64,000 nucleotides of DNA, taken from an uncultured Clostridia bacterium (lineage in GTDB: Bacteria; Bacillota; Clostridia; Christensenellales; Borkfalkiaceae). Positions 4,625 through 64,000 of the stretch are shown here, piece by piece. Location of the stretch: NCBI GenBank assembly GCA_964479935.1, contig CAYZOF010000002.1:11912-75911 (forward strand), in the 5' to 3' direction. Numbering within the stretch: position 1 is the first letter of the stretch; each line of letters opens with the position of its first letter. Below the pieces are notes generated by a model, which made no database searches, was not told the DNA's origin, and was given only the letters and a program-made list of their open reading frames with translations. A program made the position numbers and the translations under genes.

Positions 4625-4656
4625 TTCATACAATAAAGCATAAGGAGCTTTTTCGT

Positions 4657-5913: not shown

Positions 5914-5941
5914 CCTATTTTAAGCAACAAAAGAGGATATT

Positions 5942-18314: not shown

Positions 18315-18336
18315 AAGGAAGGAAGGGGATATCGCC

Positions 18337-19443
18337 GTGAAAAACGTATGCATTGTGCTAAGGAGCGATAAAGACGCGCTCTCCGACAATCGATTTCTTG
18401 TCGTTACGGACATCTTTGCGTCTGCAGGTTACGATTTTCGTGAAATCCGCATTCTCTATCAATCGGATTCCACGGAAACGCTTGCTGCATTGACCGAAGT
18501 GAAGTCGTTTTCAGAGAATATATTGCTTTTGTGCGAAAAATCCTTTTTGGCGGAGGCAAAAATGCATATAGCGACAGTTTTTCCGTCGGGAATTTACCAA
18601 GGCGGCGTAAACGGAGCCGGAATTTATGCCGATAAGGATTCCGCATGTTTTTTATTATCGGCGGATCTTACCGATACAGGCGCGGAGTTCGCTCGAAAAA
18701 TCGGCGTTCCGTTTTTGCAAAAACGTTATCGTTCTCGGTATGAGCGTTACATGATTCGTACGGTCGGAGCAAATGAAGCACGTATCGAACAGTTGATTGC
18801 AAAAGCAAAAACTTTTGCCCCGACGAATATTTCTTATCATCACGTTCGTTTACACGGGATAGATACTTTGGAAATTTTGTACGACGCGAACGCGCCGAAG
18901 GCTTTGATAGACGATACGATTCGATTGTTTGCGGACGGGTTGAGCGATTGCATTTTCGCTTTGGAAGATGTCTCGTTGGAGGAGCAACTTGTACGGCTAC
19001 TCAAACTGCGCGGTAGAAAGCTCAGCGTTGCGGAATCGTTTACCGGAGGCGGAGTCAGTAGACGCATAGTTTCCGTTCCGGGGGCGAGCCAGGTTTTTTT
19101 CGAGGGATTGAATACGTATGACGAGTTAGCGAAAGTAAAGCGGCTCGGCGTATCGGAATATACCTTAAAAACCATGGGGGCGGTGTCCGATCAAACAGCA
19201 TACGAAATGGCTACAGGGTTGTTAAATACAGGGAATTGCGATATTTCGATTGCGACGACGGGACTTGCAGGTCCGAATACGGATCGTTCCATGTTGCCCG
19301 TCGGGTTGTGTTTTATTTCGGTAGGGGTAAAAGACAGAGTTTTCGTCTATCGGTATAAGTTTGACGGAACGCGAGAAGAAATTACGGAAACGGCAATCAA
19401 TTACGCATTATTTTTGGCGTATAAACAATTAAAAAATATTTAA
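18337..19443 (+). CDS. cinA: CinA-family protein (C-terminal PncC-type nicotinamide-nucleotide amidohydrolase domain; divergent N-terminal half)
   Basis: C-terminal [34 protein letters not shown], and synteny with recA. GTG start; an alternative ATG lies at 18348. Confidence 0.75.
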
Positions 19444-22592: not shown

Positions 22593-22668
<76 letters not shown>

Positions 22669-49594: not shown

Positions 49595-50236
49595 ATGAAA
49601 CAATATGACAATGTTGTAATTTTCGATCATCCTTTGATCAAGCATAAAATCGCGATTTTGCGCGATGAAAAAACTTCCACGAAGATTTTTCGGGAATTGA
49701 TCGAAGAAATTACTATGCTCATGACTTACGAGAGCTTCAAAGACGGCGTACCGACTACGGTAAAAGAAGTAAAGACCCCGTTGGAAGTCTGCAAACAGGA
49801 CGTCGTTGCGGACAACGCCGTAGTCATTGTTCCGATTCTGCGTGCAGGACTCGGCATGGTCAGTGGCATTCACAGCCTTTTTCCCAGTGCGAGAGTCGGG
49901 CATATCGGTATGTACCGCGATGAGGAAACTTTGGAACCGAAAGAGTATTATTGTAAGCTCCCGGACGGAATCGAGGACAAGTTCGTATTGTTGGTCGATC
50001 CGATGTTGGCGACGGGCGGTAGCGCGTGCGACGCGATCGGACTTTTGAAAAAGCGCGGTTGCAAAAATATTCGTTTCATGGCGATTATCGGTGCGCCCGA
50101 GGGCGTATCCAAGGTCGCAGAAACTTATCCGGACGTGAAAATTTTTGTATCCACGTTGGACAGACAGCTCAACGAAAACGGCTATATTTTGCCGGGCCTC
50201 GGCGATGCGGGAGATCGTTTGTTCGGTACGAAATAA
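49595..50236 (+). CDS. upp: uracil phosphoribosyltransferase
   Basis: PRPP loop VLLVDPMLATGGS and C-terminal GLGDAGDRLFGT. 213 aa. Confidence 0.95.
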   Translation: MKQYDNVVIFDHPLIKHKIAILRDEKTSTKIFRELIEEITMLMTYESFKDGVPTTVKEVKTPLEVCKQDVVADNAVVIVPILRAGLGMVSGIHSLFPSARVGHIGMYRDEETLEPKEYYCKLPDGIEDKFVLLVDPMLATGGSACDAIGLLKKRGCKNIRFMAIIGAPEGVSKVAETYPDVKIFVSTLDRQLNENGYILPGLGDAGDRLFGTK

Positions 50237-50303
50237 AACGACGACGGCGAATGTTTCGATATGCTCGCCGCTTGTCGTATAAAGAAAATAAGGAGTTCGT
50301 TTT

Positions 50304-50921
50304 ATGAAAATTATCACCGTCAGCCGCGAATTCGGAAGCGGCGGCAGGGAACTCGGAAAGCGTTTGTCGGACATTTTCGGGTTCGATTATTACGACAGAG
50401 AGATTATTACGGAGATTGCCGAAAGAGAAAAACTGGACGAGCGATACGTTGAAAAAACATTGGAACTCAGTTCCATGCCTAATCTGCCTTTTTCGTGCAG
50501 AAATTCGTTTTTGACATTGGGAACGCTTTCGCCGCAGACGGAGCTGCTTTTGGCGCAAAAACGCGTATTGGAAAAAATCGCGAAGTCGGGGAAAAATTGC
50601 GTGATCGTCGGTCGAAACGCCGACATGATCTTGCGCAACCATCAACCGTTTAATTTGTTTGTATGCGCGGATATGCAGGCGAAAATCGAGCGTTGTAAGC
50701 AACGCGCCGACCAAGCCGAAAATTTATCGGAAAAAGAAATCGAAAAACGCATCAAAACTATCGATAAGAATCGTATGAAAACGCGTGCGGTCATTAGCGG
50801 TAGCGGCTGGGGCGAACGTCAATTTTATAATCTTATCGTTAATACGACAGGCTGGGAAATCAAGCAACTCACGCCGTTGGTGGCGGCGTTTATCGAGCGA
50901 TGGTACGAGGTTCGTAAATGA
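50304..50921 (+). CDS. cytidylate-kinase-like family protein
   Basis: N-terminal ITVSREFGSGGRELGKRLS P-loop variant typical of this family. 205 aa. Confidence 0.75.
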   Translation: MKIITVSREFGSGGRELGKRLSDIFGFDYYDREIITEIAEREKLDERYVEKTLELSSMPNLPFSCRNSFLTLGTLSPQTELLLAQKRVLEKIAKSGKNCVIVGRNADMILRNHQPFNLFVCADMQAKIERCKQRADQAENLSEKEIEKRIKTIDKNRMKTRAVISGSGWGERQFYNLIVNTTGWEIKQLTPLVAAFIERWYEVRK

Positions 50922-52246
50922 CCATCCGTTTTTTCGATCATTTTACTTATAAAAAGCTCCTACGCTTTACTTTGCCGTCCATTTTGATGATGATTTTTAC
51001 CTCGCTTTACGGTGTCGTGGACGGCTTTTTCGTTTCCAACTACGCAGGAAAGGCGTCGTTTACGGCGGTGAATCTCATCTATCCGTTTACGATGGTCTTG
51101 GGCGCGGTCGGGTTTATGCTCGGCTCCGGCGGTAGTGCGTTGATTGCAAAAACGCTCGGAGAGGGGAACCGCGAAAAAGCCAATGCGCTGTTTTCGTTGT
51201 TCGTTTATCTTACAGTGGCGAGCGGTATCGTGCTCGGCGTTATCGGCACGGCGCTTGTGGAGCCTATTGCTCTTTTGCTCGGCGCGGAAGGCGAAGTGGT
51301 GGAGCTGAGCGCGACTTACGGAAAAATCCTGCTGTACGCGCTCCCCGTATATATGCTTCAATTTGAGTTTCAAACTTTCTTTTCCACGGCGGAAAAACCG
51401 CAAATGGGATTGTTCGTAACTATCGGCGCAGGCGTGACGAATATCGCTTTGGACGCATTGTTCATCGGCGTGTTTAAGTGGGGGATTGCCGGAGCGGCTT
51501 TCGCCACGGCGTTCAGTCAGGCGGTCGGGGGAATCCTTCCGATTCTTTACTTTTTCGGTAGGAACAATAGCTTGTTGCGTTTGGGGAAAACGAGTTTCGA
51601 CGGAAAATCTTTATGGATAGCCTGTACAAACGGCTCATCGGAGCTGTTGTCGCAAATTTCCATGTCGCTCGTGGCGATGCTTTATAACGCGCAATTGTTG
51701 CATTATGAGCCGGAAAACGGCGTTGCTGCGTACGGTGTATTAATGTACGTCAATATGATTTTCTTGTCTGCGTTTATCGGATATTCGATGGGCACCGCGC
51801 CCGTCGTCGGATATCATTACGGCGCAAACAATCGCGAGGAGTTGAAGAGCATTCGTAAAAAGAGCATGGTCATCGTCTGTGTAACTGCAATCGTAATGTT
51901 CGTTGTAGCGGAGCTTTTTGCCAAGCCGCTCGCATTGGTTTTTGTTTCTTACGACGAAGAGCTATTGCAACTCACTTTGCGCGCGTTTGCGATTTTCTCT
52001 TTCTCGTTTTTATTTTGCGGCGTGGGAATTTTCGGTTCTTCGTTTTTCACCGCACTCAACAACGGATTGGTCTCGGCAATCATCTCGTTTTTGCGAACGG
52101 TGGTATTTCAGATTGGAGCCGTTCTGTTGTTGCCGCTTGCGTTCGCTTCGGACGGCATTTGGGCGTCGGTCGTCGTCGGGGAATTTTTGGCTGCGGCGGT
52201 AGCCGTCGCGCTATTGATCGCCTGTCGTAAAAAATACGGATATTAA
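50918..52246 (+). CDS. MATE-family efflux transporter
   Basis: 442 aa, 12 TM helices, with a typical MATE N-terminus (LLRFTLPSILMMIFTSLYGVVDGFFV). Confidence 0.88.
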   Translation: MTIRFFDHFTYKKLLRFTLPSILMMIFTSLYGVVDGFFVSNYAGKASFTAVNLIYPFTMVLGAVGFMLGSGGSALIAKTLGEGNREKANALFSLFVYLTVASGIVLGVIGTALVEPIALLLGAEGEVVELSATYGKILLYALPVYMLQFEFQTFFSTAEKPQMGLFVTIGAGVTNIALDALFIGVFKWGIAGAAFATAFSQAVGGILPILYFFGRNNSLLRLGKTSFDGKSLWIACTNGSSELLSQISMSLVAMLYNAQLLHYEPENGVAAYGVLMYVNMIFLSAFIGYSMGTAPVVGYHYGANNREELKSIRKKSMVIVCVTAIVMFVVAELFAKPLALVFVSYDEELLQLTLRAFAIFSFSFLFCGVGIFGSSFFTALNNGLVSAIISFLRTVVFQIGAVLLLPLAFASDGIWASVVVGEFLAAAVAVALLIACRKKYGY

Positions 52247-52258
52247 AAGTTTATAAAA

Positions 52259-52287
52259 ACGCGGTTCGAGGAAAAATCGAACCGCGT
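52259..52287. terminator. bidirectional terminator between the convergent MATE and RNase-lipoprotein genes
   Basis: Perfect ACGCGGTTCGA-ggaaaaa-TCGAACCGCGT with an A tract upstream and a T tract downstream. Confidence 0.75.
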
Positions 52288-52300
52288 TTTGTGCGTCAGT

Positions 52301-53737
52301 TTAATATTTTCGGTAATCGTAGTAATAATCGATTCGTGCGTCGGCGAGCAACGGATAATTTGTCAACGAATCGAACACGACTTCGACATAGTCGGTCGGG
52401 TTGTAGTTTTTCTTGCTGGAAATCGTACCTCCGCCCGTGATATTTCCGAATTTTTCTCCCCAACCGCCTTCATAGTTCAAATATTCTTGAAAATCGTTGT
52501 AGTGATTATACGTGTAGAACACGTAAAATTCGCCGAGTTCGTATATGCCGTTATGGTTTAGGTCTTCTTTCCCGTAGACGATTCGCGCCGCACCGCGTGT
52601 AATTTCGTATCCGTCGTTGTAAAGCTCTGCCTTATAGCTCGGGTCGCAATCGGTACCGGTCGTGCCGATATCCAACTCATAATAATGCAAGTCACCTCCG
52701 CAACCGCTGATGTTCGGTAAAATAGGCTCGTACGGGTACTGCGACGTATCACCCGAAAAAGCCGTGTGATTTACCCGTAAGTACTCGCCCCAAATGCTTT
52801 TGGTCGGTTTTGCATTTTTGGACGCCGTATAGTTGACCGGCACGTCCCCGAAAGCGTATATATAAGCCGCTACTTCTTCCAAATCGATGTACGCGCCGCC
52901 TTTGTATACGCGAAACGCTTCCTGCCCGTACGCATCTACGACCGTATACTCTCTTCCGTCCTCGCTCAACAACATGTCGCTGTTCCGCACGTATTTCCCG
53001 TTTACTTTCGGTTGATAAGAGGAAATTGTCGGTGCTTGGTCGGGCGTTTCGAGCGTTCCCGACATAAACCCGTGCAGACTTCGATAATACGCGTCGTCCG
53101 CGTCTTTTGCCACTTCGTAACTATCATAGAACTCCTTGGAGGAAACATCTGCGTAGGGATCTTCGCTCCCGTCGGGAAACAGATCTTCCGAGGAGAGCTC
53201 GTAATCGATTAACTGCGAATTTTTATCGAATTCGATCACGCCTTTGTAATTCTTGATCGAACCTGAAACCCAAATATAATCCCCGACGCCGATCAAATTC
53301 GCGCCTGCACCCGTCAATTGATAGCAATACATGGAACGGCTTTGCGGCTCGTCTACGTCGAAATAGAGGCAAATGCCTTTAGAGGGCGTATATTTGATGT
53401 CGATTTCCGTCACCACGCCGCCGAGCTCGTATTCACCGTCTAACGCCTCGCCGTTTTTCAGCGCGTAGGCATCGTTTACGATTTCTTCGTATTCGTTTTC
53501 TTCGATTTCGGAGCTACTCGAGCTACTCATCTCGGAGCCAACGTCGGGAGTGGAGGTCGAAGACTCGTTTTCAACGCTGTCAGATGCGCTAATTTCGGAC
53601 GAGAAAGATTCCGACGAAGAAATACTCGAGGTGGAGCTATCGCTCGAAGTTTCGCCCGTGGAAACGGTTTCGCATGCCGTAATCGCAAAAATAAGAGCGA
53701 ACGCGCTAAGCATAGTCAATTGTTTTTTAATTTTCAT
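52301..53737 (-). CDS. secreted lipoprotein: Ser-rich linker + OB-fold module + barnase/T1-type ribonuclease domain
   Basis: Lipobox FAITAC. OB-like module MYCYQLTGAGANLIGVGDYIWVSGSIKNYKGVIEF. The RNase domain (aa ~285-420, nt 52478..52885) has barnase-like catalytic contexts HYYELDI (Glu), TRGAARIVYG (Arg) and YTYNHYNDFQ (His). Confidence 0.75.
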   Translation of the reverse strand: MKIKKQLTMLSAFALIFAITACETVSTGETSSDSSTSSISSSESFSSEISASDSVENESSTSTPDVGSEMSSSSSSEIEENEYEEIVNDAYALKNGEALDGEYELGGVVTEIDIKYTPSKGICLYFDVDEPQSRSMYCYQLTGAGANLIGVGDYIWVSGSIKNYKGVIEFDKNSQLIDYELSSEDLFPDGSEDPYADVSSKEFYDSYEVAKDADDAYYRSLHGFMSGTLETPDQAPTISSYQPKVNGKYVRNSDMLLSEDGREYTVVDAYGQEAFRVYKGGAYIDLEEVAAYIYAFGDVPVNYTASKNAKPTKSIWGEYLRVNHTAFSGDTSQYPYEPILPNISGCGGDLHYYELDIGTTGTDCDPSYKAELYNDGYEITRGAARIVYGKEDLNHNGIYELGEFYVFYTYNHYNDFQEYLNYEGGWGEKFGNITGGGTISSKKNYNPTDYVEVVFDSLTNYPLLADARIDYYYDYRKY

Positions 53738-53764
53738 AAATAACCTTCTTCCTTTGTCTATAAT

Positions 53765-53793
53765 AGTATAACAAAAAATGAAGGGGAAGTCAA
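53765..53793 (-). promoter_or_regulatory. separate promoter for the RNase-lipoprotein gene (minus strand)
   Basis: Minus strand: TTGACT (53788..53793) - 17 nt - TATACT (53765..53770). Confidence 0.5.
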
Positions 53794-53798
53794 ATGAA

Positions 53799-53828
53799 AA
53801 GAGCCGCTCCGTAAAAGGAGTGGCTCTT
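53799..53828 (-). terminator. hairpin terminator after the 1200-aa lipoprotein gene (minus strand)
   Basis: On the minus strand: AAGAGCCACTCC-ttttac-GGAGCGGCTCTT (one mismatch) followed by ttcattt. Confidence 0.5.
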
Positions 53829-53846
53829 AAATTCCGAATTATTCGA

Positions 53847-56800
53847 TTATTCGTTCGTTTCGGTTGTCGTTGCGGTTGAGTAGGTTACTTCAATCGAATT
53901 CAAACGAACCTGTGCTTTAAGCTTAGCAATTTCAAATTTATCGACGGAAGCCGTAAACGTCACCGTAACAACTGATCCGTTTAACTCAAAATCATAGTCA
54001 TCGGATTCGGTGATAGAATCTTTTAATTCTGTTGCATAACTACTGTTATTACAATTGAAAACGATTTGCGTCATTCCTTTGCAGTCAATAATAATTTGGC
54101 TTGAGGCATAGCATTTTACAGGATTATAAGCATCGGCAACATCAGTTTTAGAGGCACTCTTGTTGTTTGTAAGGGTTACAGCACCGTAGGTCCACACCTG
54201 CGAATTGCTATCTTGAGATTTACGATTCGTTTTGTCAGCGAACGAAAGGGTTACGGTTTCTTCGTCTGCTTTAGGAGCGGCAGAAACTTTCACGCTAAAC
54301 GTTTTGCTAAACGAAGTTTCGCCAAGCTTAAGCGTAGCGGTAATCGTTACAAACGTCAGTTCTTCGGGCAACGTATAGGTAATCTTACCGTTAGCATTGT
54401 CGACAACCGCGCAATCCTTATCGGTAGCATAGCTGATAGCGACGTCCGTGTAGGTCGTGCCTGCGATAGCGACCGTTTCATCGCCAGCCGCCTTGATTTC
54501 CGTATTTAACGTTAAACTGAAAGATTCAATAACAAGTTTATAGATAGGGGCAATGGTTTCATTTGCGGTGCATTCTATGACAGTAGCGTTTTTTGCCCGT
54601 ACGTCGGTATATTTACCGATAACGGTCAAAAGCTTAACGGTGTCACCAACAACGGGTTTCGTTGCCATACTGTCATAACGAGTATTATTTTCGTCATACA
54701 AACCATAAACATAGAAGATATTGCCGTTTTCGTCTGCGATATAGCAATTACCGTATGTTGTACTTGCCAATTTTACAATCGTACCACTGATATAATATTT
54801 CTCGGTGGTATAGTTATCTTTTGAAAACGTATTAGCCTTTTCGATAGCTTCGGGAATGGTAAGCGTGGTATATTCGGTAGGCGTAACGGGTGTATCCGTA
54901 TTGTCGCCACTTTCCGATCCGCCTTGGTTGCCACTGTCCGTGGTGCTTTCTGCGTAGAAGTTGCAGTGAATGTTTTCGGAAGCTTTTACGGGACTAACCG
55001 ATGTATAGGTACCGTAAGTACCGATTGTATAAGCCGTATCGTTTACAGTCGTACGCAATTCGCCCGTTTCGCTGTCAATCGTGTAGACGGTAGAAGCGGT
55101 GATTTGATATTTAACGTTTACGTATGTATCGCTTGTAACGATATTGACATACGTTTTTTGCTCCATCGTACAGTAGAGGTAGTAACCGCCTTCGGTTTGT
55201 TCCAAATAGAAATCCAAAGCGTCGGCAACGGTATCCGTAGTTGCAAAATAGTAGGTATTTACCATTGCGCCCGTGAGATAATAAGTTTTTCCGGACTGCA
55301 CCATACCGAATTTATAAGCTGTACCTACTACGGGAGCGGTAACAACGCTGTACGTTTTGGTATCGGTGTTGTCGCCCGTGTTACCTTCGTCGCCGCCGGT
55401 CGTATCTCCACCGGTGCTGCCTTCGCCCAAAGTAACTTGGATAGCGGTGATTTTTACTTGACCTTTCTTTTCGTCACCGGTATTGCCTACACCGAATGTA
55501 ACAGAGCTTGCATTTACGGTATAAACTTCATCGGAAGCGATTTGCGTTTCACCGCAAGTAAGGATACCGGTATTCTTTACGGCATAAGTAATTTTCACGC
55601 TACCGATCGAGCCGCTTGCAACGGAAATCGTTAGGGTTGCGGATTCGGTTTGATAAATACGCCAGTCTTCGCCGTTGGTGTAATATTTACCTGTATTCAA
55701 GCTATAATCGCCGACAGCCGTACCGCTAACGGTCAACGTAACGCCTTTGTTGGTGATGGTCGTATAGCTTTTCGAGTCTTCCCAATTATTAGCGTCTGCC
55801 CAATCTGCAATCGTGAAACCTTTCGTGATGTCGAGGTCGGTGGTTTCGCCGCTGTCGCCGCCGGTAGAACCGCCTTCGCCTTCGGTGTAGCTGTCAAGGC
55901 TGCAACCGCTTCCGAATTCGACTGTACCCTTGAAGTTCATGAGCGTACCTGTAACGGTGATGGTGTCGCCGATCTTGATTGCGTCTGCGCCCGTACCTTT
56001 TAAACGATAACATTGGATAGATTTGCCTTCAACGTCGATAGTAACGGTTACGTTGCTGTATTCAGAACTGTAAGGGGTGTTCACGTTCGTGATTTTACCT
56101 GTAAGCGTGTATTCGCCGAGCGTTTCGCCTGCCGCAAGATTGAATGCCGCGTTGACGATCTCGCTTGCGCTTGCATTTGCCGCAGGAGCAACCGTTTTAG
56201 GACCGAGCGTCAAGGTGAACGTTTTCGTGTCGGTCTTCTCGCCGCAAGTAAGGGTAGCCGTAAGGGTAACGGTCGTTTGCGCTTCGGGAATGGTAAGCTT
56301 CAACGCACTGCCGTCTACCTTTGCGCATGCTTCATCGGAAGACGTCCAAGCAATTTTTACGTCGGGATAACGTTCGTCGTATGCGGTGAGCTCTACCGTC
56401 TGGTCGAGGGTATATTTTGCCTGAACGCTCAAAACTTCTTTAATCGCCGCGAATTTCGTTTCCGCAGAAACGGAATCCGCAGAAATCATTTCCGCAAGAC
56501 CGCCGACAAAGGACTTTGATGCATAAGAAAGTAAAGAAGAACTAATAGTATTTTTCGTATCATAAGATCCTAAATAGAGAGTTTTTTCGGTATCGGTAGT
56601 TGAAGATTGATCATTAGTGGAATGCGCCGCGATAGTCGTCGTAATCGTATTATATTCACTATTCCAAACGAATTTGCTTACAGGATTACCGGAAAATTCG
56701 GGGTTATAGGACCAGCTATTCTTTGTCGAGTTCCAAGACTCCACAACGCCGATGTACATTTTCGTATTCGTACCGTCAAAGAAGTACGGATAGAATTCCG

Positions 56801-57449
56801 TCGTGCTGCCTTCCAAATATTCAACGTATACGTCAACGCCTTCCTTGTAGTTTTCGGTTGTAGCGAAATAATAGGTGTTTGCTTTCGCGCCCGTGAAGTA
56901 CATATCCGTTTGGTTATTGCCTTGATAAACATAGAGCTTATATGCCGTTCCTGCTACGGGAGCCGCCGTGATAAGCTTCGGCGTGACATCCGACATAGCC
57001 AAAACTTTACGCGTGAACGTAAGGACAATCGATTCGCCGGCTTCGTTGGTAACGGTTGCCGTCAAGGTATATGTAAGGTCTTCCTTGAGATCTTTTGCAA
57101 CGATAACGGGAATGAGTTCGCTTCCGTCCTCGTCGGTGTATACTTCGCCAAACGTTACCCCTGCGGATACGTTAACGGTCCAAGTGATGGGGTAACCCCA
57201 AACCTTTGCGTCTACCGTGTAGTCTTCCCGACCTTCTTTGTTCAAATTTTGTTCTTTGCTTTTCAAGAACTCTGCTGCTGTTTGCAAGTTTTCGTCTTCC
57301 ACTTCAGTGGCTGAAGAGCTACTGTTTCCGTTGCTATTGCTGACGGAGGGAGTACTGTTGGAGGGGGAGCTGTCGTTGTTGTTTTTACAAGCGCCCGCGC
57401 AAGCCAAAATCGCGATGGTGGCAAGAATGCCGGTTAAGATTTTTTTCAT
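53847..57449 (-). CDS. 1200-aa surface lipoprotein with duplicated module set (Ig-like, two OB-fold-like, two pairs of unknown modules)
   Basis: Signal peptide plus lipobox (ILACAGAC) and an S/N-rich linker. OB modules lie at aa ~428-520 (IQCYRLKGTGADAIKIGDTITVTGTLMNFKGTVEF) and ~858-962. Internal repeats pair aa 156-320 with 697-830, and aa 541-675 with 1063-1190. Confidence 0.8.
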   Translation of the reverse strand: MKKILTGILATIAILACAGACKNNNDSSPSNSTPSVSNSNGNSSSSATEVEDENLQTAAEFLKSKEQNLNKEGREDYTVDAKVWGYPITWTVNVSAGVTFGEVYTDEDGSELIPVIVAKDLKEDLTYTLTATVTNEAGESIVLTFTRKVLAMSDVTPKLITAAPVAGTAYKLYVYQGNNQTDMYFTGAKANTYYFATTENYKEGVDVYVEYLEGSTTEFYPYFFDGTNTKMYIGVVESWNSTKNSWSYNPEFSGNPVSKFVWNSEYNTITTTIAAHSTNDQSSTTDTEKTLYLGSYDTKNTISSSLLSYASKSFVGGLAEMISADSVSAETKFAAIKEVLSVQAKYTLDQTVELTAYDERYPDVKIAWTSSDEACAKVDGSALKLTIPEAQTTVTLTATLTCGEKTDTKTFTLTLGPKTVAPAANASASEIVNAAFNLAAGETLGEYTLTGKITNVNTPYSSEYSNVTVTIDVEGKSIQCYRLKGTGADAIKIGDTITVTGTLMNFKGTVEFGSGCSLDSYTEGEGGSTGGDSGETTDLDITKGFTIADWADANNWEDSKSYTTITNKGVTLTVSGTAVGDYSLNTGKYYTNGEDWRIYQTESATLTISVASGSIGSVKITYAVKNTGILTCGETQIASDEVYTVNASSVTFGVGNTGDEKKGQVKITAIQVTLGEGSTGGDTTGGDEGNTGDNTDTKTYSVVTAPVVGTAYKFGMVQSGKTYYLTGAMVNTYYFATTDTVADALDFYLEQTEGGYYLYCTMEQKTYVNIVTSDTYVNVKYQITASTVYTIDSETGELRTTVNDTAYTIGTYGTYTSVSPVKASENIHCNFYAESTTDSGNQGGSESGDNTDTPVTPTEYTTLTIPEAIEKANTFSKDNYTTEKYYISGTIVKLASTTYGNCYIADENGNIFYVYGLYDENNTRYDSMATKPVVGDTVKLLTVIGKYTDVRAKNATVIECTANETIAPIYKLVIESFSLTLNTEIKAAGDETVAIAGTTYTDVAISYATDKDCAVVDNANGKITYTLPEELTFVTITATLKLGETSFSKTFSVKVSAAPKADEETVTLSFADKTNRKSQDSNSQVWTYGAVTLTNNKSASKTDVADAYNPVKCYASSQIIIDCKGMTQIVFNCNNSSYATELKDSITESDDYDFELNGSVVTVTFTASVDKFEIAKLKAQVRLNSIEVTYSTATTTETNE

Positions 57450-57480
57450 TGAGTTTCTCCTTTATATAAAATTTTTGTTT

Positions 57481-58860
57481 TCAATGAATCGTAATTGCGC
57501 CAAGGTAGAATACCTTGATTTGATAACCTTCGTAATAATCGACGAAGCCTTTGTTTACGTCGATTGTTTTGCCTAAAAACTCGTCTTCCGTAACAAGGGT
57601 TTCGTCCGCATGGCGCAACACAGCCGTACGAACGGTAATGGTTTGACCGTCTTCCGATCTACAAGTGAGCGTGATTGCACCTTTGTTGTTACTGGTTTCA
57701 TTCTTCGTAGTATATGCGTCTATAACCGTCAAATTCTTCATGGAAATCGACGTATTCATTGCGAGCGCGGCATAGTCGAACTCAACAGGGGTAATAACCG
57801 TTTCACCCGTTTGGAAATCCAACGTTTCCATATCCACGGCGACTTTGCCGTTGAACGTGCTTGCCGAAGTTTCTTTGTAGGCAATTTCATTGTCTTCGGA
57901 AAGTTTTATAGTGTTGTCAGGATCGTCCGGTTTTATTGCACGATATTTCAAGTCGGACACTTGATAGGTGCCACTTGCTTCATAGTAGGTAACTTTGCCG
58001 ACCATACGAACGCGATTGCCGGGGGCAAGAATATCGAGAAGTTCTTCCTTATAGTTCAAAAAAGCAGAGATACCATAATATAAACCGGTTTCAGCATCGT
58101 AATCTTCGATATAAACGTTCCAACTATTGTACAACGTTACCGTGCCTTCAAAGGTAACTTTTACTTCGAGATATTCTTCGGGATTTGTACGCAATTCTTT
58201 AAGCGTGATAGTTTTTGCGTCGCCTTTGTAGAAATCCGGGTCATCGCCCGACCAAAGGTTCAATTTGTTTGTTTTAGCTTGGCTGAACGCGTTCATACAA
58301 GCCGTACTGTAACGGCAGGTATTCATTTTGTTACCATACGCAAAACCGTTTTGCAGAATTTCCAAGTTCAAATTGCGGTAGTCTGTGCCACCTTGCGGTT
58401 TATACCAAATCCAAACGAGAAATCTGCCGTTTGAGTCGTATTCCCATTCCGTACCGTCCGTTTCCACGATGATAGAGGACGCGCTCTCTAACTTTTCCCT
58501 GGTGAAGTTAGAGGCTTTTTTGCCCCAAGGCTCGATTGCACCTGTCGATTCGGGGGTGTTGATGGCGGTGTAACGCGCTTTCAAAGTGCCGTCCGGGGCA
58601 ATGCTCGTCGGAACGTTGAAATGCGTCGTATCGCCGTCGACGTACAGTTTTACCGTTACTTCCAGTTTTTTCGAGTCGGTCGTCATATCGAGCTTCGTCT
58701 GTTCGACGTAGTCGATAAATTCCGTCGAACTGCTCCCAGAGGAACTGTTTTCCGAAGCACTGTTTTCGGCGGAATTGCCGCCGTTAGGCAGGTCGCACCC
58801 TGCGAACGCGCCGAGCGAGATCGCAGCGAGCAACAATAAGGATAATATTTTCTTTTTCAT
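57481..58860 (-). CDS. lipoprotein with staphylococcal (micrococcal) nuclease domain + C-terminal OB-like/beta domains
   Basis: Lipobox GAFAGC. SNase motifs VDGDTTHF, KARYTAINTPE, GRFLVWIWY, LQNGFAY and NLWS (aa ~65-205). Confidence 0.8.
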   Translation of the reverse strand: MKKKILSLLLLAAISLGAFAGCDLPNGGNSAENSASENSSSGSSSTEFIDYVEQTKLDMTTDSKKLEVTVKLYVDGDTTHFNVPTSIAPDGTLKARYTAINTPESTGAIEPWGKKASNFTREKLESASSIIVETDGTEWEYDSNGRFLVWIWYKPQGGTDYRNLNLEILQNGFAYGNKMNTCRYSTACMNAFSQAKTNKLNLWSGDDPDFYKGDAKTITLKELRTNPEEYLEVKVTFEGTVTLYNSWNVYIEDYDAETGLYYGISAFLNYKEELLDILAPGNRVRMVGKVTYYEASGTYQVSDLKYRAIKPDDPDNTIKLSEDNEIAYKETSASTFNGKVAVDMETLDFQTGETVITPVEFDYAALAMNTSISMKNLTVIDAYTTKNETSNNKGAITLTCRSEDGQTITVRTAVLRHADETLVTEDEFLGKTIDVNKGFVDYYEGYQIKVFYLGAITIH

Positions 58861-58887
58861 AATTTTTCCTTTTCCTAAGGTTATCGA

Positions 58888-60393
58888 TTAAAGGTCGTTG
58901 AATTCCAATTCGTCAATGGTGTCGTCAAATGCATTCTTAATAAAGTCAGCCAACGTCATATTGCCAAGATCCGTTTTCGCGAAACAGGTTTGCATCAAAA
59001 GCCCGACTTGTACACGAGCTTCCGAAGAACCTGCGAATGCAGGGGAAATGTAGCAAGCATCTTCTTGTGCAAGTGCTTGTATAACAGCCGTTGCAGTCAA
59101 GTTTTTGTCACCGTCGGCGGATGCAAGCCAATTCTTGTAGAATTCGTTCTGTTGAACGGATTTAATGACGGGCGCATATCCGTTGTTCTGAGAGAATTCT
59201 GCCTGCAATTCAACGCAAGTCGTCAAAAATTTTGCAAACAACCAAGCCGCTGCCTGTTCCTGTTCCGCAGCCGCTTTATCGGTTTTGTTCAATTCCGCTA
59301 GTCTTACCTTGTTGAAAAGTACAAGGGAGGGTCCTTGTGAAATTACTTTCGGTTTGTTAACGTCTACTTGAGGGATCGGTGCTACGCCTACTTCAAAAGG
59401 ATAGACGTCTTGCCCTTCGGAATTTTTAACCTTATCGGGAACTTGATTGGAAGCGCCGCCGGTAGAACCGATACACATAAACATTCTGGTCTTGGATGTA
59501 TCGATATTGGTGAACAACAAGGACGTATAGGAGTTACCGTTGAGGGCTTTCGTTGTTACGTAACCGGATTGATGCCAGTTGGTAAATCTTTCAACGAATG
59601 CGCGAGCTTCCGGGGTGTTGAAAAGGTAGTGGTCGCCCGTTGCGGAGGTGTAAGGGATTCCGGACTGTTCACACATCGTGATGAACCAGTTGGATTCGGA
59701 GTCGTAACCGAGAGGGATGCAGTTGCTTTCCTCGCTTCTGATGGTTTGACACAGGGTTTCCATTTCATCCCAGGTGGTGGGAACGGTGTAACCCTTTGCA
59801 TCGAAATACGTTTTGTTGTAGAACAACACTTCCGAAGATTTTTGGAAAGGAAGGGTGTACATTTTTCCGTCACCGTATACGCGACCTTCTTCCCAGTAGC
59901 TTTCTACGAAATCGTCAAGTTGCGCCTGCGTGTAACCCATCGTCTCCGTCGTACCGTCTGCGTGTTCTACAACGGCATCGCTTGCGATATAGCTATCGAG
60001 CGTGAGGACCATTTTCGACTTATTGTAAAGGGCAACATGGTCGGAATAGCAATATGCCAAACTAGGGGAGTTTTTACCTGCTAATTCCTTACTGATTTGG
60101 CTGCGCAAAGCGTCATAGTCACCGATCATCGTATGCGTGATATGAATGTTAGGATAAAGTCTGTTAAATTCGGGAATATATTCATTCAAAATCGGTTGAA
60201 GCGTGTTCGCACCCATTGTGTGGTAGAACGTAATGTCAACGTCACTGCCGTCATAGGCTACGATAGGGGTGATTTCAACTCCGCTATCGGAAGAGCCACC
60301 GGAGTTGCCGCCGTTATCGCCGCAAGAGGCGAGCGCGCTGAGAGACATTACTGCCGAAAGAAAGGTACACAGAAATTTTTTGGTGTTTTTCAT
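58888..60393 (-). CDS. ABC transporter solute-binding lipoprotein (family-1/CUT1-type)
   Basis: Signal peptide plus lipobox (LSALASCG), about 480 mature aa, adjacent to MalF/G-like permeases. ATG at 60393 (MKNTKKF) is preferred over the ORF-track start at 60453. Confidence 0.8.
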   Translation of the reverse strand: MKNTKKFLCTFLSAVMSLSALASCGDNGGNSGGSSDSGVEITPIVAYDGSDVDITFYHTMGANTLQPILNEYIPEFNRLYPNIHITHTMIGDYDALRSQISKELAGKNSPSLAYCYSDHVALYNKSKMVLTLDSYIASDAVVEHADGTTETMGYTQAQLDDFVESYWEEGRVYGDGKMYTLPFQKSSEVLFYNKTYFDAKGYTVPTTWDEMETLCQTIRSEESNCIPLGYDSESNWFITMCEQSGIPYTSATGDHYLFNTPEARAFVERFTNWHQSGYVTTKALNGNSYTSLLFTNIDTSKTRMFMCIGSTGGASNQVPDKVKNSEGQDVYPFEVGVAPIPQVDVNKPKVISQGPSLVLFNKVRLAELNKTDKAAAEQEQAAAWLFAKFLTTCVELQAEFSQNNGYAPVIKSVQQNEFYKNWLASADGDKNLTATAVIQALAQEDACYISPAFAGSSEARVQVGLLMQTCFAKTDLGNMTLADFIKNAFDDTIDELEFNDL

Positions 60394-60456
60394 GTTGATA
60401 CATCCTTTATATAATATTTTGTTTTTTCGATAAAATTTATAAAATTTATACAAGAG

Positions 60457-61410
60457 TTAGCCCTTAATACCACTTCTGGAAACGCCTTTCATAATATATT
60501 TTCTGAGAAAGACGAATACGAGGAACAACGGGGCGGAAACTATCGCGACAGCCGCCATTTGAACGGGGATGTTTGTTTTTCCCGTATCCACGTCGGTGAA
60601 AGAGAGTGCGCGCAACCCGTTGGTAATCAAACGCATTTCTTCTTCGTTTGCAACCAGTCGAGGCCAGATATAGCTGTTCCATGCGCCCATCATCTTCAAA
60701 ATTGTAATCGAAATTAAGGTGGGCAGGGCAAGGGGAATCATAACTTTCCAGAGATATTTCAAGTCGGTCGTGCCGTCGACTTTTGCCGCCAGATACAGTT
60801 CGTTAGGAATCTGTTCGAAATTCTGTTTCAACAGATAGATATAAAACACGCTGACGAGGAAAGGAACGATCAACGCCTTAAAGGTGTTCATCCATTGGAA
60901 TGTACTGATCGTCTGATAATTGGTGATGGTGAAAAGTTCCCCGGGGATCATCATCGTTGTCAAAAGGAAAGCAAACAGGGCGTTTTTTCCCTTGAATTCC
61001 AATCGGGCAAAGGCGAACGCCGACAACACGGTGATGATAAGGGACAGTATGGTCGAGACGATACCGACGTATACCGTATTTAAGAATAATCTGCCTAAGT
61101 TGCCTGTGGTGAACGCTTGCGAATAGTTCGACCATAAAATCTCTTTCGGGAAGAACGTGGGTTCGGGCAATGAAAACTCTTGCACGCTCTTTACGGAGGA
61201 AATCAACATAAAGTAGAAAGGAAACAAAACGACCAACGCCATAACGCCGAGAAAAGCGTACAAAGCGATTTGCACCAGCACTTTCGTTACTTTTTGTTTT
61301 TTTGATACTTTTTGAATATCCTTTTCTTTCATGACGCTTTCGGCGAGTTCGGTTTTTCCCGTGTCTTCGGAAGGGAGGTCCAAATTTTCATTTTCTTGTA
61401 ATTCTTTCAT
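60457..61410 (-). CDS. ABC transporter permease (MalG/UgpE-like)
   Basis: 6 TM helices and an EAA-type loop LAAKVDGTTDLKYLWKVMIPLALP. Hydrophilic extension of ~45 aa at the N-terminus. Confidence 0.88.
   Translation of the reverse strand: MKELQENENLDLPSEDTGKTELAESVMKEKDIQKVSKKQKVTKVLVQIALYAFLGVMALVVLFPFYFMLISSVKSVQEFSLPEPTFFPKEILWSNYSQAFTTGNLGRLFLNTVYVGIVSTILSLIITVLSAFAFARLEFKGKNALFAFLLTTMMIPGELFTITNYQTISTFQWMNTFKALIVPFLVSVFYIYLLKQNFEQIPNELYLAAKVDGTTDLKYLWKVMIPLALPTLISITILKMMGAWNSYIWPRLVANEEEMRLITNGLRALSFTDVDTGKTNIPVQMAAVAIVSAPLFLVFVFLRKYIMKGVSRSGIKG
61369..61395 (-). repeat. 27-nt near-repeat copy B, encoding ENENLDLPS at the N-terminus of permease 2
   Basis: See copy A; read directly from the sequence. 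Confidence 0.8.
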
Positions 61411-61422
61411 AAAATACCTCCT

Positions 61423-62718
61423 TTAACGCGTTTTTTTCTTTTTACTGACACTCAAATTAATCATGGTTACCACGAAGATAATGGCAAACAGAATCAACGC
61501 CGCCGCACTGGCTACGCCGTCCTGGTCAAGGGACATGCGATCGTATATGAAACCGACCATCGTATTGAGCGAATGTTCCGAACCTGCAGGTCTCATATTC
61601 TCGCCGAAAATGCCGACAATGCTCGAATATTCCTTAAAACCGCCGATAAAACCCGTAATAATAACGTAGGCAAGCATCGGGGCAAGTTGGGGCACGGTAA
61701 TTTTCGTGAATACGCGCCAACGGGGCGTACTGTCGATTTTTGCGGCTTCGTAATATTGCTTGTCGATACTCTGCAAACCGCCGAGCAAAATTAAGATTTT
61801 GAAAGGCAGGGCATTCCAAACGATGTATATGACGAGTACGGTGATGTTTGCGGCATAGCTCGAGCCTGGGTTGACCCAGTTGATAGGTTCTACGCCAAAA
61901 ATGCCGAGGATGTTATTTATAATGCCATAGGAATCGATATTGCCCGTTATAACAGAGCCGACGATATAAAACATTGCATTGAATACCATACCGATTGCAA
62001 TCGAGTTGGTAACGTAGGGCAGGAAGAAAATCGTCTGAAAAAATCTCTGCAACGGCTTAATCGAATTTAAGCAAACGGCGATAAGCAGTGCCAAAATCGT
62101 CGAGATAGGTACGGTAAGCACGCAGAGCAAAATCGTGTTTTTCAAACAGGTCAAGAAGCCTTTGTAGCGGATAACTTTTTCGTAGTTTTTAAAGCCGAAC
62201 TCGAACGTTATTTCATCGTTGAGGACACTCATTCCGCCGTAGTCTTCCAAAAAGGAAATACGTACGGTGTTGATGATGGGCCAAACCGTGAAAATCGCCA
62301 ACAAAACGATGGCAGGAAGGAGGTAAATCCAGCCTTTCCATTTATCGAACTTTATTTTTTGGAGAAATTTACGTCTCTTTGTTCTCCATTCGTCAAGCAA
62401 AACGCGCAGACTTTTTTTACTTCCCGCATCTTCGTCGTCTTCGTTGATGTCGGAAATCGCAAGCTCCGCTTCCGTCGTCGTTTCGTTCACGGAAAGCGCG
62501 GCTACTGCCGCCTGTTCGGATTCGTCGTCTGCCACAGATTTTACGAATATCTCGTTGATTTTATAACTTAAAAGTTTGCCGCAAACAGGACAAACGTATG
62601 CCTTTGTTCCGTCCGTCATTCGCAATTCCGCGCGACACGAAAGACAATGCACGGTTAAGTCTTTCTTTGCGGAAGGATCGTAATCGGAAAGGAGGTTCAA
62701 ATTTTCGTTTTCGCTCAT
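61423..62718 (-). CDS. ABC transporter permease (MalF/UgpA-like) with N-terminal CxxC-x16-CxxC zinc-ribbon extension
   Basis: EAA loop YYEAAKIDSTPRWRVFTKITVP and 6 TM helices. The N-terminal ~125 aa are cytoplasmic, with CLSCRAELRMTDGTKAYVCPVCG followed by an acidic linker. Confidence 0.88.
   Translation of the reverse strand: MSENENLNLLSDYDPSAKKDLTVHCLSCRAELRMTDGTKAYVCPVCGKLLSYKINEIFVKSVADDESEQAAVAALSVNETTTEAELAISDINEDDEDAGSKKSLRVLLDEWRTKRRKFLQKIKFDKWKGWIYLLPAIVLLAIFTVWPIINTVRISFLEDYGGMSVLNDEITFEFGFKNYEKVIRYKGFLTCLKNTILLCVLTVPISTILALLIAVCLNSIKPLQRFFQTIFFLPYVTNSIAIGMVFNAMFYIVGSVITGNIDSYGIINNILGIFGVEPINWVNPGSSYAANITVLVIYIVWNALPFKILILLGGLQSIDKQYYEAAKIDSTPRWRVFTKITVPQLAPMLAYVIITGFIGGFKEYSSIVGIFGENMRPAGSEHSLNTMVGFIYDRMSLDQDGVASAAALILFAIIFVVTMINLSVSKKKKTR
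62686..62712 (-). repeat. 27-nt near-repeat copy A, encoding ENENLNLLS at the N-terminus of permease 1
   Basis: Plus strand ggaaaggaggttcaaattttcgttttc, versus copy B ggaagggaggtccaaattttcattttc (3 mismatches). Confidence 0.8.
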
Positions 62719-62721
62719 ACG

Positions 62722-63822
62722 TTACACCTCGAACGAGATTCTTTCTTCCGTTTCCGCGTCAAAGAGAAACACTTTATGCGGTTTCAATGCGAATGCGATG
62801 GTTGTCGCCGCCGGGGCAATTTTTACGTCTGCGTCTACGATCGAACGGACAATCGGGTTCAAAGACGCCGAGTGACGGGATACGATGCTCACGTCGCGTC
62901 CCATAACTTCTACGTTGGAAAGATTACAAACAAACGCGCCGTCTTCGCAAGGGATAAAGCCTTCCGGACGAATGCCTACGGTTACTGCGCGGTCGTCTAC
63001 GCCGGGTACGTCGAGCACGGCGTTCTCGCCGAGATAGAGCTTACCGCCCTGCACTTTGCCGCTGAATACGTTGATGGGGGGAGTACCGAGGAATTTCGCA
63101 ACGAACAAGTTGGTGGGGGTGTCGTAGATTTCCTGCGGTTTGCCGACTTGTTGCACGACGCCGAGCTTCATCACCACGATCATGTCGGAGATGCTCATCG
63201 CTTCTTCTTGGTCGTGGGTTACGAATACGGTCGTGATGCCCGTTTCTTTTTGGATTCTTCTGATTTCTTCACGAGTTTGCAATCTCAAACGCGCGTCGAG
63301 GTTGGAAAGCGGCTCGTCCAAGAGCAATACGCGCGGCATTTTAACAAGCGCACGCGCGATTGCGACACGCTGTTGCTGTCCGCCGGAAAGCTCGCTCGGC
63401 TTTCTGTCCATAAGCTCGTCGATCTGCACGAGCTTCGCGGCTTCTTGCGCGCGTTGCAACATATCGGCTTTGGAAAGCTTATCTGCGCCTCGTAAGTTTT
63501 GCAGGGGAAAGAGAATGTTCTGCTTTACCGTCATGTGCGGATACAGAGCGTAGTTCTGGAATACGAGTCCGATGCCTCTGTTTTCGGGAGAAAGCTCGGT
63601 GACGTCTTCTTCGCCGAAGAAGATTCTGCCCGAAGTGGGTTGTTGAAGTCCACTGATCATGTACAGGGTCGTACTTTTACCGCATCCGGAAGGACCGAGT
63701 AATCCGACGAGTTTCCCGTCGGGGATGGTAAAGGTGAAGTCATTTACCGCAACCACTTCTTCGCCGCCTTTTTTGTTGCGACTCGGAAAGATTTTGGTCA
63801 AATTTTGCAATTCTACTTTCAT
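62722..63822 (-). CDS. ABC transporter ATP-binding protein (MalK/UgpC/MsmX-like with C-terminal regulatory domain)
   Basis: Walker A GPSGCGKSTTL, LSGGQQQRVAIARAL, LLLDEPLSNLD. 366 aa. GGAGG RBS. Confidence 0.92.
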   Translation of the reverse strand: MKVELQNLTKIFPSRNKKGGEEVVAVNDFTFTIPDGKLVGLLGPSGCGKSTTLYMISGLQQPTSGRIFFGEEDVTELSPENRGIGLVFQNYALYPHMTVKQNILFPLQNLRGADKLSKADMLQRAQEAAKLVQIDELMDRKPSELSGGQQQRVAIARALVKMPRVLLLDEPLSNLDARLRLQTREEIRRIQKETGITTVFVTHDQEEAMSISDMIVVMKLGVVQQVGKPQEIYDTPTNLFVAKFLGTPPINVFSGKVQGGKLYLGENAVLDVPGVDDRAVTVGIRPEGFIPCEDGAFVCNLSNVEVMGRDVSIVSRHSASLNPIVRSIVDADVKIAPAATTIAFALKPHKVFLFDAETEERISFEV

Positions 63823-63867
63823 ATAACCTCCAAAGAAAGTTCATACGTATTTATAAATCGAGCATTG

Positions 63868-63881
63868 AAAACTCGAGTTTT
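63868..63881. promoter_or_regulatory. perfect 14-bp palindrome upstream of the ABC ATPase gene
   Basis: AAAACTCGAGTTTT overlaps the stop of the upstream minus-strand CDS. It could be a short terminator stem or an operator. Confidence 0.3.
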
Positions 63882-64000
63882 AGGCTTCTGTATTTTGTGC
63901 TTCGAGCGCTGCCTGCTCTTGTTGCCAGGCAATCAAATCCTCTTGCGAGTCGAAAATTTGCTGACTTGCGAAATCCACGACCGCTGTATCCGAGAGCAGG
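63880..64000 (-). CDS. 3' end of an unidentified minus-strand CDS running out of the window
   Basis: Open frame read by hand from the window edge to TAA (plus-strand tta at 63880..63882). Its C-terminus is ...AWQQEQAALEAQNTEA. Too short to name. Confidence 0.35.
   Translation of the reverse strand, partial: LLSDTAVVDFASQQIFDSQEDLIAWQQEQAALEAQNTEA

Follow-up and report, generated by a model that had tools for sequence, protein, structure and literature searches.

In mycoplasmas, the staphylococcal nuclease (SNase) lipoproteins MAG_5040, mhp379, MPN133 and MHO_0730 are encoded in a conserved, co-transcribed operon together with a lipoprotein that resembles a solute-binding protein (SBP) and with a sugar-type ATP-binding cassette (ABC) transporter, and this operon was proposed to import nucleic-acid precursors (PMC3585158, PMC9740415). 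In Ca. Izemoplasmatales, Wasmund et al. (2021) described DNA-degradation loci that combine several nucleases with ABC transporters, phosphohydrolases and a nucleic-acid-binding protein of 1049 aa, and they reported that homologues of their SBPs in other genomes also adjoin nucleases (PMC8289736). Isolates of Xianfuyuplasma (PMC8397711) and Hujiaoplasma (PMC10470597) grow on DNA, and their loci, which are induced by DNA and RNA, include an extracellular ribonuclease and NrnA. In gut Bacteroidales, the DNA-utilization locus ddbABCDEF, with a TonB-dependent transporter, was published in 2025 and was shown to be needed for depleting DNA and producing nucleobases in the gut (PMC12478041). We examined a stretch of 64,000 nucleotides from an uncultured Clostridia bacterium (contig CAYZOF010000002.1; hereafter the window) and found a minus-strand gene string that codes for a CUT1-type ABC importer with its SBP, an SNase lipoprotein, a 1200-aa lipoprotein with OB-fold homology (the giant protein) and a 478-aa lipoprotein joining an OB fold to a putative barnase-like domain (the RNase protein). 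We consider it likely that this string is an operon with which uncultured Clostridia of gut and rumen scavenge nucleic acids, and it probably represents the ABC-based equivalent, in Gram-positive cells, of the DNA-degradation and DNA-utilization loci named above. An earlier note on this DNA knew of no described CUT1-nuclease module, a claim that the mycoplasma and Izemoplasmatales precedents cited above overturn: the principle has already been described in mycoplasmas, Izemoplasmatales and Bacteroidales. The Clostridia version has not, in so far as our literature searches found no description of it.

The scavenging reading is preferred because the SBP and SNase genes are linked almost without exception, because genes of nucleotide metabolism flank most loci, because no glycoside hydrolase recurs and because of the published precedents. 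In particular, the order ATPase, MalF/UgpA-type permease (PermF), MalG/UgpE-type permease (PermG), SBP and SNase was kept on one strand in 79 out of 80 loci (tblastn and clustering of open reading frames, ORFs). The SNase gene lay directly downstream of the SBP gene in 79 of the 80, and a relative of the giant protein followed the SNase gene in 74. These and all later loci counts refer to the best 80 of at least 586 stretches of species-representative genomes that encode a relative of the SBP according to an alignment search, one locus per species-level genome, and all 80 came from uncultured gut or rumen Clostridia (Ca. Scatosoma, Faecousia, metagenome-assembled genomes labelled Oscillospiraceae, and others). 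The median gaps across loci were 15 nt between SBP and SNase genes and 24 nt between SNase and giant-protein genes, and the median SBP identity among loci was 65%. The gene upstream of the string, that is, upstream of the gene for an RDD-family membrane protein, coded for DeoC in 23 loci, for a PHP phosphoesterase in 10 and for unrelated proteins in 28. Since the core is kept while this neighbour varies, at a median SBP identity of 65%, the core is conserved where the surrounding synteny is not. The operon is real and strongly conserved, and the linkage of the SBP, SNase and giant-protein genes is not due to chance. The earlier note had suggested looking for nuclease genes beside SBP orthologues in related genomes, and there they were.

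The sole locus without an SNase gene (L074) was a deletion variant; replacement by a non-orthologous nuclease was considered for it and rejected, the substitute ORF being a repeat protein. Another locus (L016) carried a second, partial PermF-PermG-SBP copy without SNase just upstream of the full operon and next to tdk, which may be a paralogous transporter or a duplication. Finally, three loci contained an extra secreted protein between the giant-protein gene and surE (L008, positions 16962-18932, and also L017 and L067), with dockerin-like repeats according to NCBIfam and a C-terminus that resembles non-specific endonucleases, as judged by eye only.

The SNase assignment, already made in the earlier note, is solid by profile comparison: residues ~60-205 of the lipoprotein matched PF00565 (E=8e-14, 52.4 bits against a Pfam cutoff of 21) and aligned with the S. 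aureus nuclease. In the numbering of that enzyme, D19, D21, T22, R35, E43 and R87 were invariant in all 80 orthologues and T41 was retained in 79, while the calcium-ligand position D40 (residue 101 of the window protein) was changed to N in 78 out of 80. The alignment thus describes a catalytic core that is intact, with one metal ligand changed. The D40N change may point to a different metal preference; MAG_5040, the mycoplasma homologue, was reported to be Mg-dependent. The C-terminal half of the protein comprised an OB-like region with a weak tRNA_anti_2 match (20 bits).

According to their profile matches, the ATPase, the two permeases and the SBP together form a CUT1-type importer (TC 3.A.1.1), as the earlier note had it. 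The ATPase matched ABC_tran (E=4e-38) as well as OB_MalK (28.1 bits, cutoff 27) and CysA_C in Pfam, and its best NCBIfam match was UgpC (350 bits). Both permeases contained BPD_transp_1 (PermF E=5e-18, PermG E=6e-18); MalF and UgpA were the best NCBIfam matches of PermF and UgpE that of PermG (E=7e-30), so that the best NCBIfam models for the pair overall were UgpA, UgpE, MalF and MalG. The SBP scored above the Pfam cutoffs for SBP_bac_8 (PF13416, E=2e-27, 97 bits) and SBP_bac_1 (PF01547, E=2e-20, 74.6 bits); it had more than 6,400 homologues, and its nearest PDB sequences (E~1e-10) covered part of the protein. The scores against Ugp models were all far under the NCBIfam equivalog cutoffs (e.g. 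38 bits against 411 for the SBP), and by these profiles the SBP is a divergent CUT1 solute-binding protein of a family distinct from UgpB. We also noted that PermF is extended at its N-terminus by 125 cytoplasmic residues (1-125; 62344-62718, minus strand), which bear an acidic stretch and a CxxC...CxxC zinc-ribbon motif; the zinc-ribbon matches were weak, and no more than 5 of 18 long orthologues had the extension.

We identified the genes that recur in the flanks by their NCBIfam matches. Upstream and divergent from the operon we found a block in the order deoC-deoD-cdd-pdp-tdk (DeoC, DeoD, Cdd, Pdp and Tdk, all above curated cutoffs), and downstream and convergent a block in the order surE-nrnA-nrnA-HD, which comprises a SurE 5'/3'-nucleotidase above its cutoff together with two NrnA-like DHH phosphoesterases and a dGTPase-like HD protein below theirs. 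The PHP protein that lay directly upstream in 10 loci was of the 3',5'-nucleoside-bisphosphate phosphatase / RNase RNM type, below cutoff. The deo cluster occurred upstream in 21 of 59 loci, among them the 96%-identical relative L001, and SurE and NrnA were downstream in 33-34 of 46; the SurE-NrnA block was still linked where it had moved or been inverted (L025, L035). Among the 38 loci with both flanks available, 34 had at least one gene of nucleoside or nucleotide metabolism, and no glycoside hydrolase, sugar kinase or sugar regulator recurred in the loci.

These flanks bear on a different account of the transporter, namely that it is an ordinary oligosaccharide or glycerophosphodiester importer and that the nuclease and OB lipoproteins merely share its transcription unit and serve other ends, such as the remodelling of an extracellular DNA matrix, escape from DNA traps or attack on neighbours by a secreted RNase. 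The best profile matches of the SBP are indeed carbohydrate SBPs and UgpB, barnase-family RNases can act as toxins, and mycoplasma SNase homologues have also been described as cytotoxins and as enzymes that degrade neutrophil extracellular traps (PMC9740415). We nevertheless regard this account as improbable: the adjacency of SBP and SNase genes holds across divergent species and varied contexts (79/80, median gap 15 nt), the flanks are enriched in nucleoside and nucleotide enzymes while no sugar-related gene of the above kinds recurs, the enzymes are lipid-anchored rather than released, and an immunity or barstar gene was not found beside the RNase gene.

Under the scavenging reading, the lipid-anchored proteins would act outside the membrane on their long S/N-rich tethers, where the giant OB protein and the OB modules fused to both enzymes would hold extracellular DNA or RNA at the cell surface. 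The SNase lipoprotein would cut DNA and RNA, and the barnase-like lipoprotein would cut RNA in those genomes that carry its gene; both nuclease activities are inferred, as is nucleic-acid binding by the OB modules. The SBP would then capture a small product and pass it to the CUT1-type, MalFGK2-like translocator. Inside the cell, NrnA-type oligonucleotidases, SurE and the HD and PHP phosphohydrolases would act first, followed by DeoD, Pdp, Cdd, DeoC, Tdk and Upp, to give bases, pentose phosphate and salvage nucleotides.

Cleavage by SNase and barnase-family enzymes yields 3'-phosphate ends. We favour a phosphorylated cargo because of these 3'-phosphate products, because exported phosphatases are nearly absent from the loci and because genes for cytoplasmic oligonucleotidases and nucleotidases are linked to the operon; our preferred guess is that 3'-mononucleotides or di- and oligonucleotides are carried in preference to nucleosides. 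An exported phosphatase was present in only 2 of the 80 loci (L040, positions 4202-5887, and L078). In both it was a lipoprotein of the 2',3'-cyclic-nucleotide phosphodiesterase / 3'- and 5'-nucleotidase type that lay near the operon, and no other exported phosphatase was seen. In its specific form, the proposal that the CUT1 system imports 3'-mononucleotides, 2',3'-cyclic nucleotides or short oligonucleotides, that NrnA, SurE, HD and PHP proteins dephosphorylate and trim them and that the RDD protein is an accessory subunit is a tentative one, which we would sooner doubt than assert. If true, it would define the first ABC importer for nucleotides or oligonucleotides, tell the cargo of the nuclease-linked 'sugar' ABC transporters of mycoplasmas and make the RDD protein a previously unrecognised accessory subunit of such importers; import of phosphorylated material would also contradict the usual assumption of dephosphorylation before uptake.

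It is possible, though again doubtful, that the same ensemble takes up unphosphorylated cargo (nucleosides, free ribose or deoxyribose) after unlinked ecto-nucleotidases have stripped the phosphates. The CUT1 system would then be an importer of nucleosides or pentoses that belongs to an unusual class, and dephosphorylation would proceed as is assumed in Shewanella, Vibrio and Izemoplasma. Uncharged sugars are the classical cargo of CUT1 systems, nucleosides and deoxyribose phosphate are the substrates of the divergent neighbours DeoC, DeoD, Pdp and Cdd, two loci do have the lipoprotein phosphodiesterase/nucleotidase, and the literature holds that nucleotides need dephosphorylation before uptake (PMC8289736). 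These points are set against 78 of 80 gene strings from which an exported phosphatase is missing and against the linked genes for two NrnA-type oligonucleotidases, SurE, HD and PHP proteins, which would be needed only if phosphorylated material enters. Moreover, UgpB-type CUT1 members carry phosphodiesters, and it is Ugp models against which the ATPase and permeases score best.

The RDD gene lay directly upstream of the ATPase gene in 60 of 65 loci, and its cluster representative matched Pfam RDD (PF06271, 55 bits, cutoff 24). In the 96%-identical relative L001 the RDD ORF (5686-6501) precedes the ATPase gene. We know of no connection of RDD-family proteins to ABC importers or to nucleic-acid metabolism, and the protein might be an accessory subunit of the importer.

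All four exported proteins (SBP, SNase, giant and RNase proteins) matched the lipobox pattern, and S, T, N, G, D and E were abundant in their tethers (56-82% of the first 50 residues), in line with the lipoboxes and S/N-rich tethers read earlier from the window. A lipobox-type signal was present in 71-88% of the orthologues (SBP 71/81, SNase 68/79, giant protein 54/76, RNase protein 11/14) and nearly absent from the cytoplasmic controls (SurE 0/40, NrnA 1/75, ATPase 0/72). The lipobox of the SBP was LASC, with Cys24 invariant across the family.

The AlphaFold2 (AF2) model of the giant protein showed a string of beta-rich modules with a mean predicted local distance difference test (pLDDT) of 82.8. 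We identified a duplicated module of ~80 aa (~160-240 and ~702-773), an aBig_2 Ig-like domain (351-415; Pfam E=2e-12) and an OB module of the nucleic-acid type (430-521). The two copies of the ~80-aa module matched each other in BLASTP (E=5.5e-13), shared the consensus APV.GTAYK...YYFATT and were well folded in AF2, and no family could be assigned to them. The OB module aligned with that of the RNase protein at 40% identity (BLASTP E=1e-18; single-sequence hhalign E=1.7e-34), so the module common to both proteins, which the earlier note had spotted from a shared residue pattern, is real. A second OB module, which the same note had counted in the giant protein, is no more than plausible: the candidate (~885-961) reached E=0.018 as a single sequence against the OB profile and was modelled by AF2 as a helix and five strands with pLDDT >92. 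A profile score of E=1e-13 for this module was discarded as an artefact of a multi-domain alignment that mixes modules. No catalytic domain was detected in the giant protein, and Foldseek with the whole model returned only generic Ig, cadherin and S-layer-type beta-sandwich arrays. Many giant-protein homologues carried PF01336, which stayed sub-threshold in the window proteins (17 bits against 27). Two homologues were fused to PF04231 (Endonuclease I), and the protein at this position ranged from 138 to 1854 aa among species.

The RNase protein consisted of an S-rich tether, an OB fold (~80-180), a conserved linker domain and the barnase-like domain (~285-420). Its OB domain was modelled with pLDDT ~90 and matched the OB folds of the LysRS anticodon-binding domain, Stn1, RPA and PolC in Foldseek; judged by this model it is a nucleic-acid-type OB fold, and this first OB assignment is solid. 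The profile comparisons proposed earlier for the nuclease and OB families therefore bore out the SNase and OB assignments and left the barnase/T1-type RNase sub-threshold, though consistent. In the window protein, PF00545 scored 16 bits against a cutoff of 24; it was the top Pfam match in 41 of 41 family members (best E=8e-4), all below the gathering score, and divergent members of the family were likewise under the threshold. We conclude from the alignments described next that the C-terminus probably belongs to a divergent barnase-like clade that Pfam misses.

With hhalign, the family aligned to barnase residues 6-107, that is, over the whole domain, at 36% identity, with a probability of 1.65% against this single-sequence template. 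E73, R83, R87 and H102 of barnase fell on E354, R381, R385 and H412, invariant in the 41 sequences of an otherwise variable family, and K27 fell on an invariant or near-invariant residue with the alignment offset by one position. Real barnase (sequence confirmed against 1A2P) scored above 19,982 of 20,000 shuffled copies against the family hidden Markov model (HMM; p~9e-4), while RNase Sa was not significant in a test of the same type. We consider it unlikely that the domain is instead a binding or structural one that resembles barnase in short motifs only. Such a domain would agree with the PF00545 gathering score never being reached, with the low hhalign probability, with the failure of RNase Sa, with AF2 confidence of 40-70 in the domain (Foldseek on the protein model matched the OB domain only) and with phmmer and profile searches of PDB sequences, which found no RNase. 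It would fit less well with PF00545 ranking first in every member, with the catalytic residues on conserved sites, with the result for barnase itself in the shuffle test or with the predicted order of a helix followed by strands, which is that of barnase.

The barnase-like family had more than 2,700 homologues, none annotated and without a Pfam domain. Against 1.84 billion representatives its RNase core formed a compact family of 269 clusters, and no bridge to true PF00545 members was seen among the ten most divergent relatives listed. The gene was present downstream in 12 of the 46 loci with enough flank and is an accessory gene of the module. A barstar-like inhibitor gene, which might protect the producer before export of the lipoprotein, was not found nearby in the window or the 80 loci.

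Several points weigh against the scavenging reading. In the window itself only upp is nearby, and the SurE, NrnA and deo genes are absent from the rest of it; judging by L001, the deo cluster would lie just past the window end. The SurE, NrnA and deo genes are on other strands and hence not co-transcribed with the operon, and as housekeeping genes they could owe part of their proximity to inherited synteny. All 80 loci are the closest relatives (50-96% SBP identity), and thus represent one orthologue group and not independent origins. By sequence profiles the SBP is nearest, weakly, to carbohydrate and glycerol-3-phosphate binding proteins, and a sugar ligand is compatible with its sequence. 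The RNase domain fails the Pfam gathering score in every member tested and is poorly modelled by AF2, and a tblastn search with barstar found no barstar-like gene in the window or the 80 loci. What the earlier note had pictured, a surface ensemble of nucleases and OB proteins coupled to CUT1 import, is well supported by the genomic context (79/80 and 34/38 loci), with the RNase and the second OB module as its weaker parts.

The features of the locus are collected in Table 1. The seven minus-strand ORFs lay in the order and at the positions given by the earlier note when the window was checked, and the ORF coordinates gave the same gaps of 27 nt (SBP-SNase) and 31 nt (SNase-giant). An eighth gene must be added to its string of seven, since the co-oriented RDD gene, cut by the window end, precedes the ATPase gene with a gap of 60 nt.

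Table 1. Features of the operon and its surroundings in the 64,000-nt window
Feature	Position	Strand	Basis
RDD-family membrane protein gene, C-terminal 39 codons	63883..64000	-	translation matches C-terminus of L001 RDD ORF
ABC ATPase, MalK/UgpC type, C-terminal MalK OB regulatory domain	62722..63822	-	Pfam + NCBIfam
MalF/UgpA-type permease (PermF)	61423..62718	-	BPD_transp_1 + NCBIfam
MalG/UgpE-type permease (PermG)	60457..61410	-	BPD_transp_1 + NCBIfam
Family-1 solute-binding lipoprotein (SBP)	58888..60393	-	SBP_bac_8, SBP_bac_1, lipobox
Staphylococcal-nuclease-domain lipoprotein (SNase)	57481..58860	-	PF00565 above cutoff
1200-aa lipoprotein (giant protein), string of beta-rich modules	53847..57449	-	aBig_2, OB homology, AF2
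Terminator-like hairpin after giant gene	53797..53826	-	read from sequence
Promoter-like site TTGACT-17-TATACT with TG extension	53765..53793	-	promoter scan + sequence
OB + putative barnase-like lipoprotein, 478 aa	52301..53737	-	AF2/Foldseek OB, PF00545 sub-threshold, hhalign
Strong bidirectional terminator hairpin (AAAACGCGGTTCGA / TCGAACCGCGTTTT) between RNase gene and convergent MATE gene	52256..52290	.	read from sequence

Within the transporter the intergenic gaps were 3, 12 and ~63 nt, the last with the SBP start taken as the ATG at 60393, which is most likely the start and not the TTG at 60453 to which the ORF extends. No terminator was found between the nuclease and transporter genes in the terminator scan, and this together with the short gaps suggests that they may be co-transcribed. 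The string starts with the RDD gene, which runs off the window, and the promoter of the operon thus lies outside it. Behind the giant-protein gene we read a hairpin (GAGCCaCTCC-TTTTAC-GGAGcGGCTC, followed by TTTT; 10-bp stem with one mismatch, 6-nt loop), which a strict terminator scan missed on account of its short T-run. It is followed by the TTGACT-17-TATACT site, the top minus-strand match of the promoter scan in 52000-64000 (10/12 with TG), and then by a ribosome-binding site and the ATG of the RNase gene. The hairpin and separate promoter of the earlier note were thus seen again; promoter-like sites in the region overall were no more numerous than in shuffled sequence.

Neither the window nor eight related loci showed a riboswitch close to the operon; a SAM riboswitch in L005 (1047-1133, minus strand), ~9 kb upstream of the SBP gene, was unrelated to the operon. 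A single tRNA gene (22594-22666, plus strand) was the sole Rfam match in the window. The GC skew was ~+0.15 over the first 52 kb, in which almost every long ORF lies on the plus strand, and ~0 across the minus-strand locus (52000-64000), which fits an orientation against the prevailing gene direction. Finally, the convergent plus-strand genes at 49595-52246 coded for a uracil phosphoribosyltransferase (confirmed), a cytidylate-kinase-like protein (weak match) and a MATE efflux transporter; the first of these, upp, is in keeping with a role in salvage.

Nucleic acids are plentiful as a nutrient in the gut, and their use there is only just being worked out. In that setting the operon is a candidate Firmicutes counterpart of the Bacteroidales ddb locus; it occurs in at least several hundred species-level genomes, and it bears on the long-open question of what is carried by the 'sugar-type' ABC transporter beside surface nucleases in mycoplasmas. 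What is new here is the host clade, the RDD gene, the modular OB giant protein and the unannotated family of barnase-like lipoproteins, as well as a hint of phosphorylated cargo import. Two large protein families without annotation are thereby defined, the barnase-like lipoproteins and the modular OB-fold surface proteins.

Among single proteins and transporters, two known cases share features with the locus. YhcR of Bacillus subtilis, a cell-surface protein that yields 3'-nucleotides, has an OB nucleic-acid-binding module fused to an SNase domain. It is sortase-anchored, has its own 5'-nucleotidase/metallophosphoesterase domain, and its gene does not belong to an ABC importer operon. UgpBAEC, a CUT1 importer of glycerol-3-phosphate and glycerophosphodiesters, provides the best NCBIfam matches for the Clostridia ATPase and permeases and carries phosphorylated and phosphodiester cargo; unlike its binding protein, the Clostridia SBP is of a distinct family, and no glycerophosphodiesterase is linked to the locus.

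The ddb locus likewise unites lipoprotein nucleases, a surface protein that may bind substrate and a dedicated transporter, and it does so in the same ecosystem. Its hardware is Gram-negative, with a SusCD-type TonB-dependent outer-membrane transporter (DdbCD) and a periplasmic nuclease, and its enzymes are unrelated to those described here. It lacks an ABC importer and an SBP, whereas the Clostridia locus lacks a TonB-dependent transporter and uses an ABC system, so the likeness is one of analogy only. The Izemoplasmatales loci resemble the Clostridia locus in that they bring together extracellular nucleases (among them a thermonuclease and an extracellular ribonuclease), ABC transporters, phosphohydrolases, NrnA and a nucleic-acid-binding protein of ~1000 aa. 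Pst phosphate transporters are encoded in them as well, and the large protein there contains nuclease and lamin-tail domains; the Clostridia giant protein differs in having no detectable catalytic domain. Their habitat is marine sediment, as opposed to the animal gut.

The mycoplasma operon (MAG_5030-MAG_5070; homologues mhp379, MPN133, MG_186, MHO_0730 and MBOV_RS02825) shares with the Clostridia locus an SNase lipoprotein that adjoins an SBP-like lipoprotein, a sugar-type (MalK/UgpACE-like) ABC transporter and conservation across species, and there the genes are transcribed polycistronically. By description, the contiguity of SNase and SBP lipoproteins with sugar-type ABC genes is the arrangement that holds in 79 of our 80 loci. 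An NCBIfam lipo_P68 match of the SBP (23 of 24 members) was considered as a further link to this operon and rejected, P68 being mhp390, which is not adjacent to mhp379. The two arrangements differ in that the SBP and SNase genes precede the transporter in mycoplasmas and follow it in Clostridia. They differ also in their hosts, since mycoplasmas are nucleotide auxotrophs, whereas the Clostridia are free-living in the gut and able to catabolise nucleosides. Compared with the mycoplasma operon, the Clostridia locus adds the RDD protein, the giant OB lipoprotein, an optional lipoprotein with a putative barnase-like domain and an OB-like C-terminus on the SNase.

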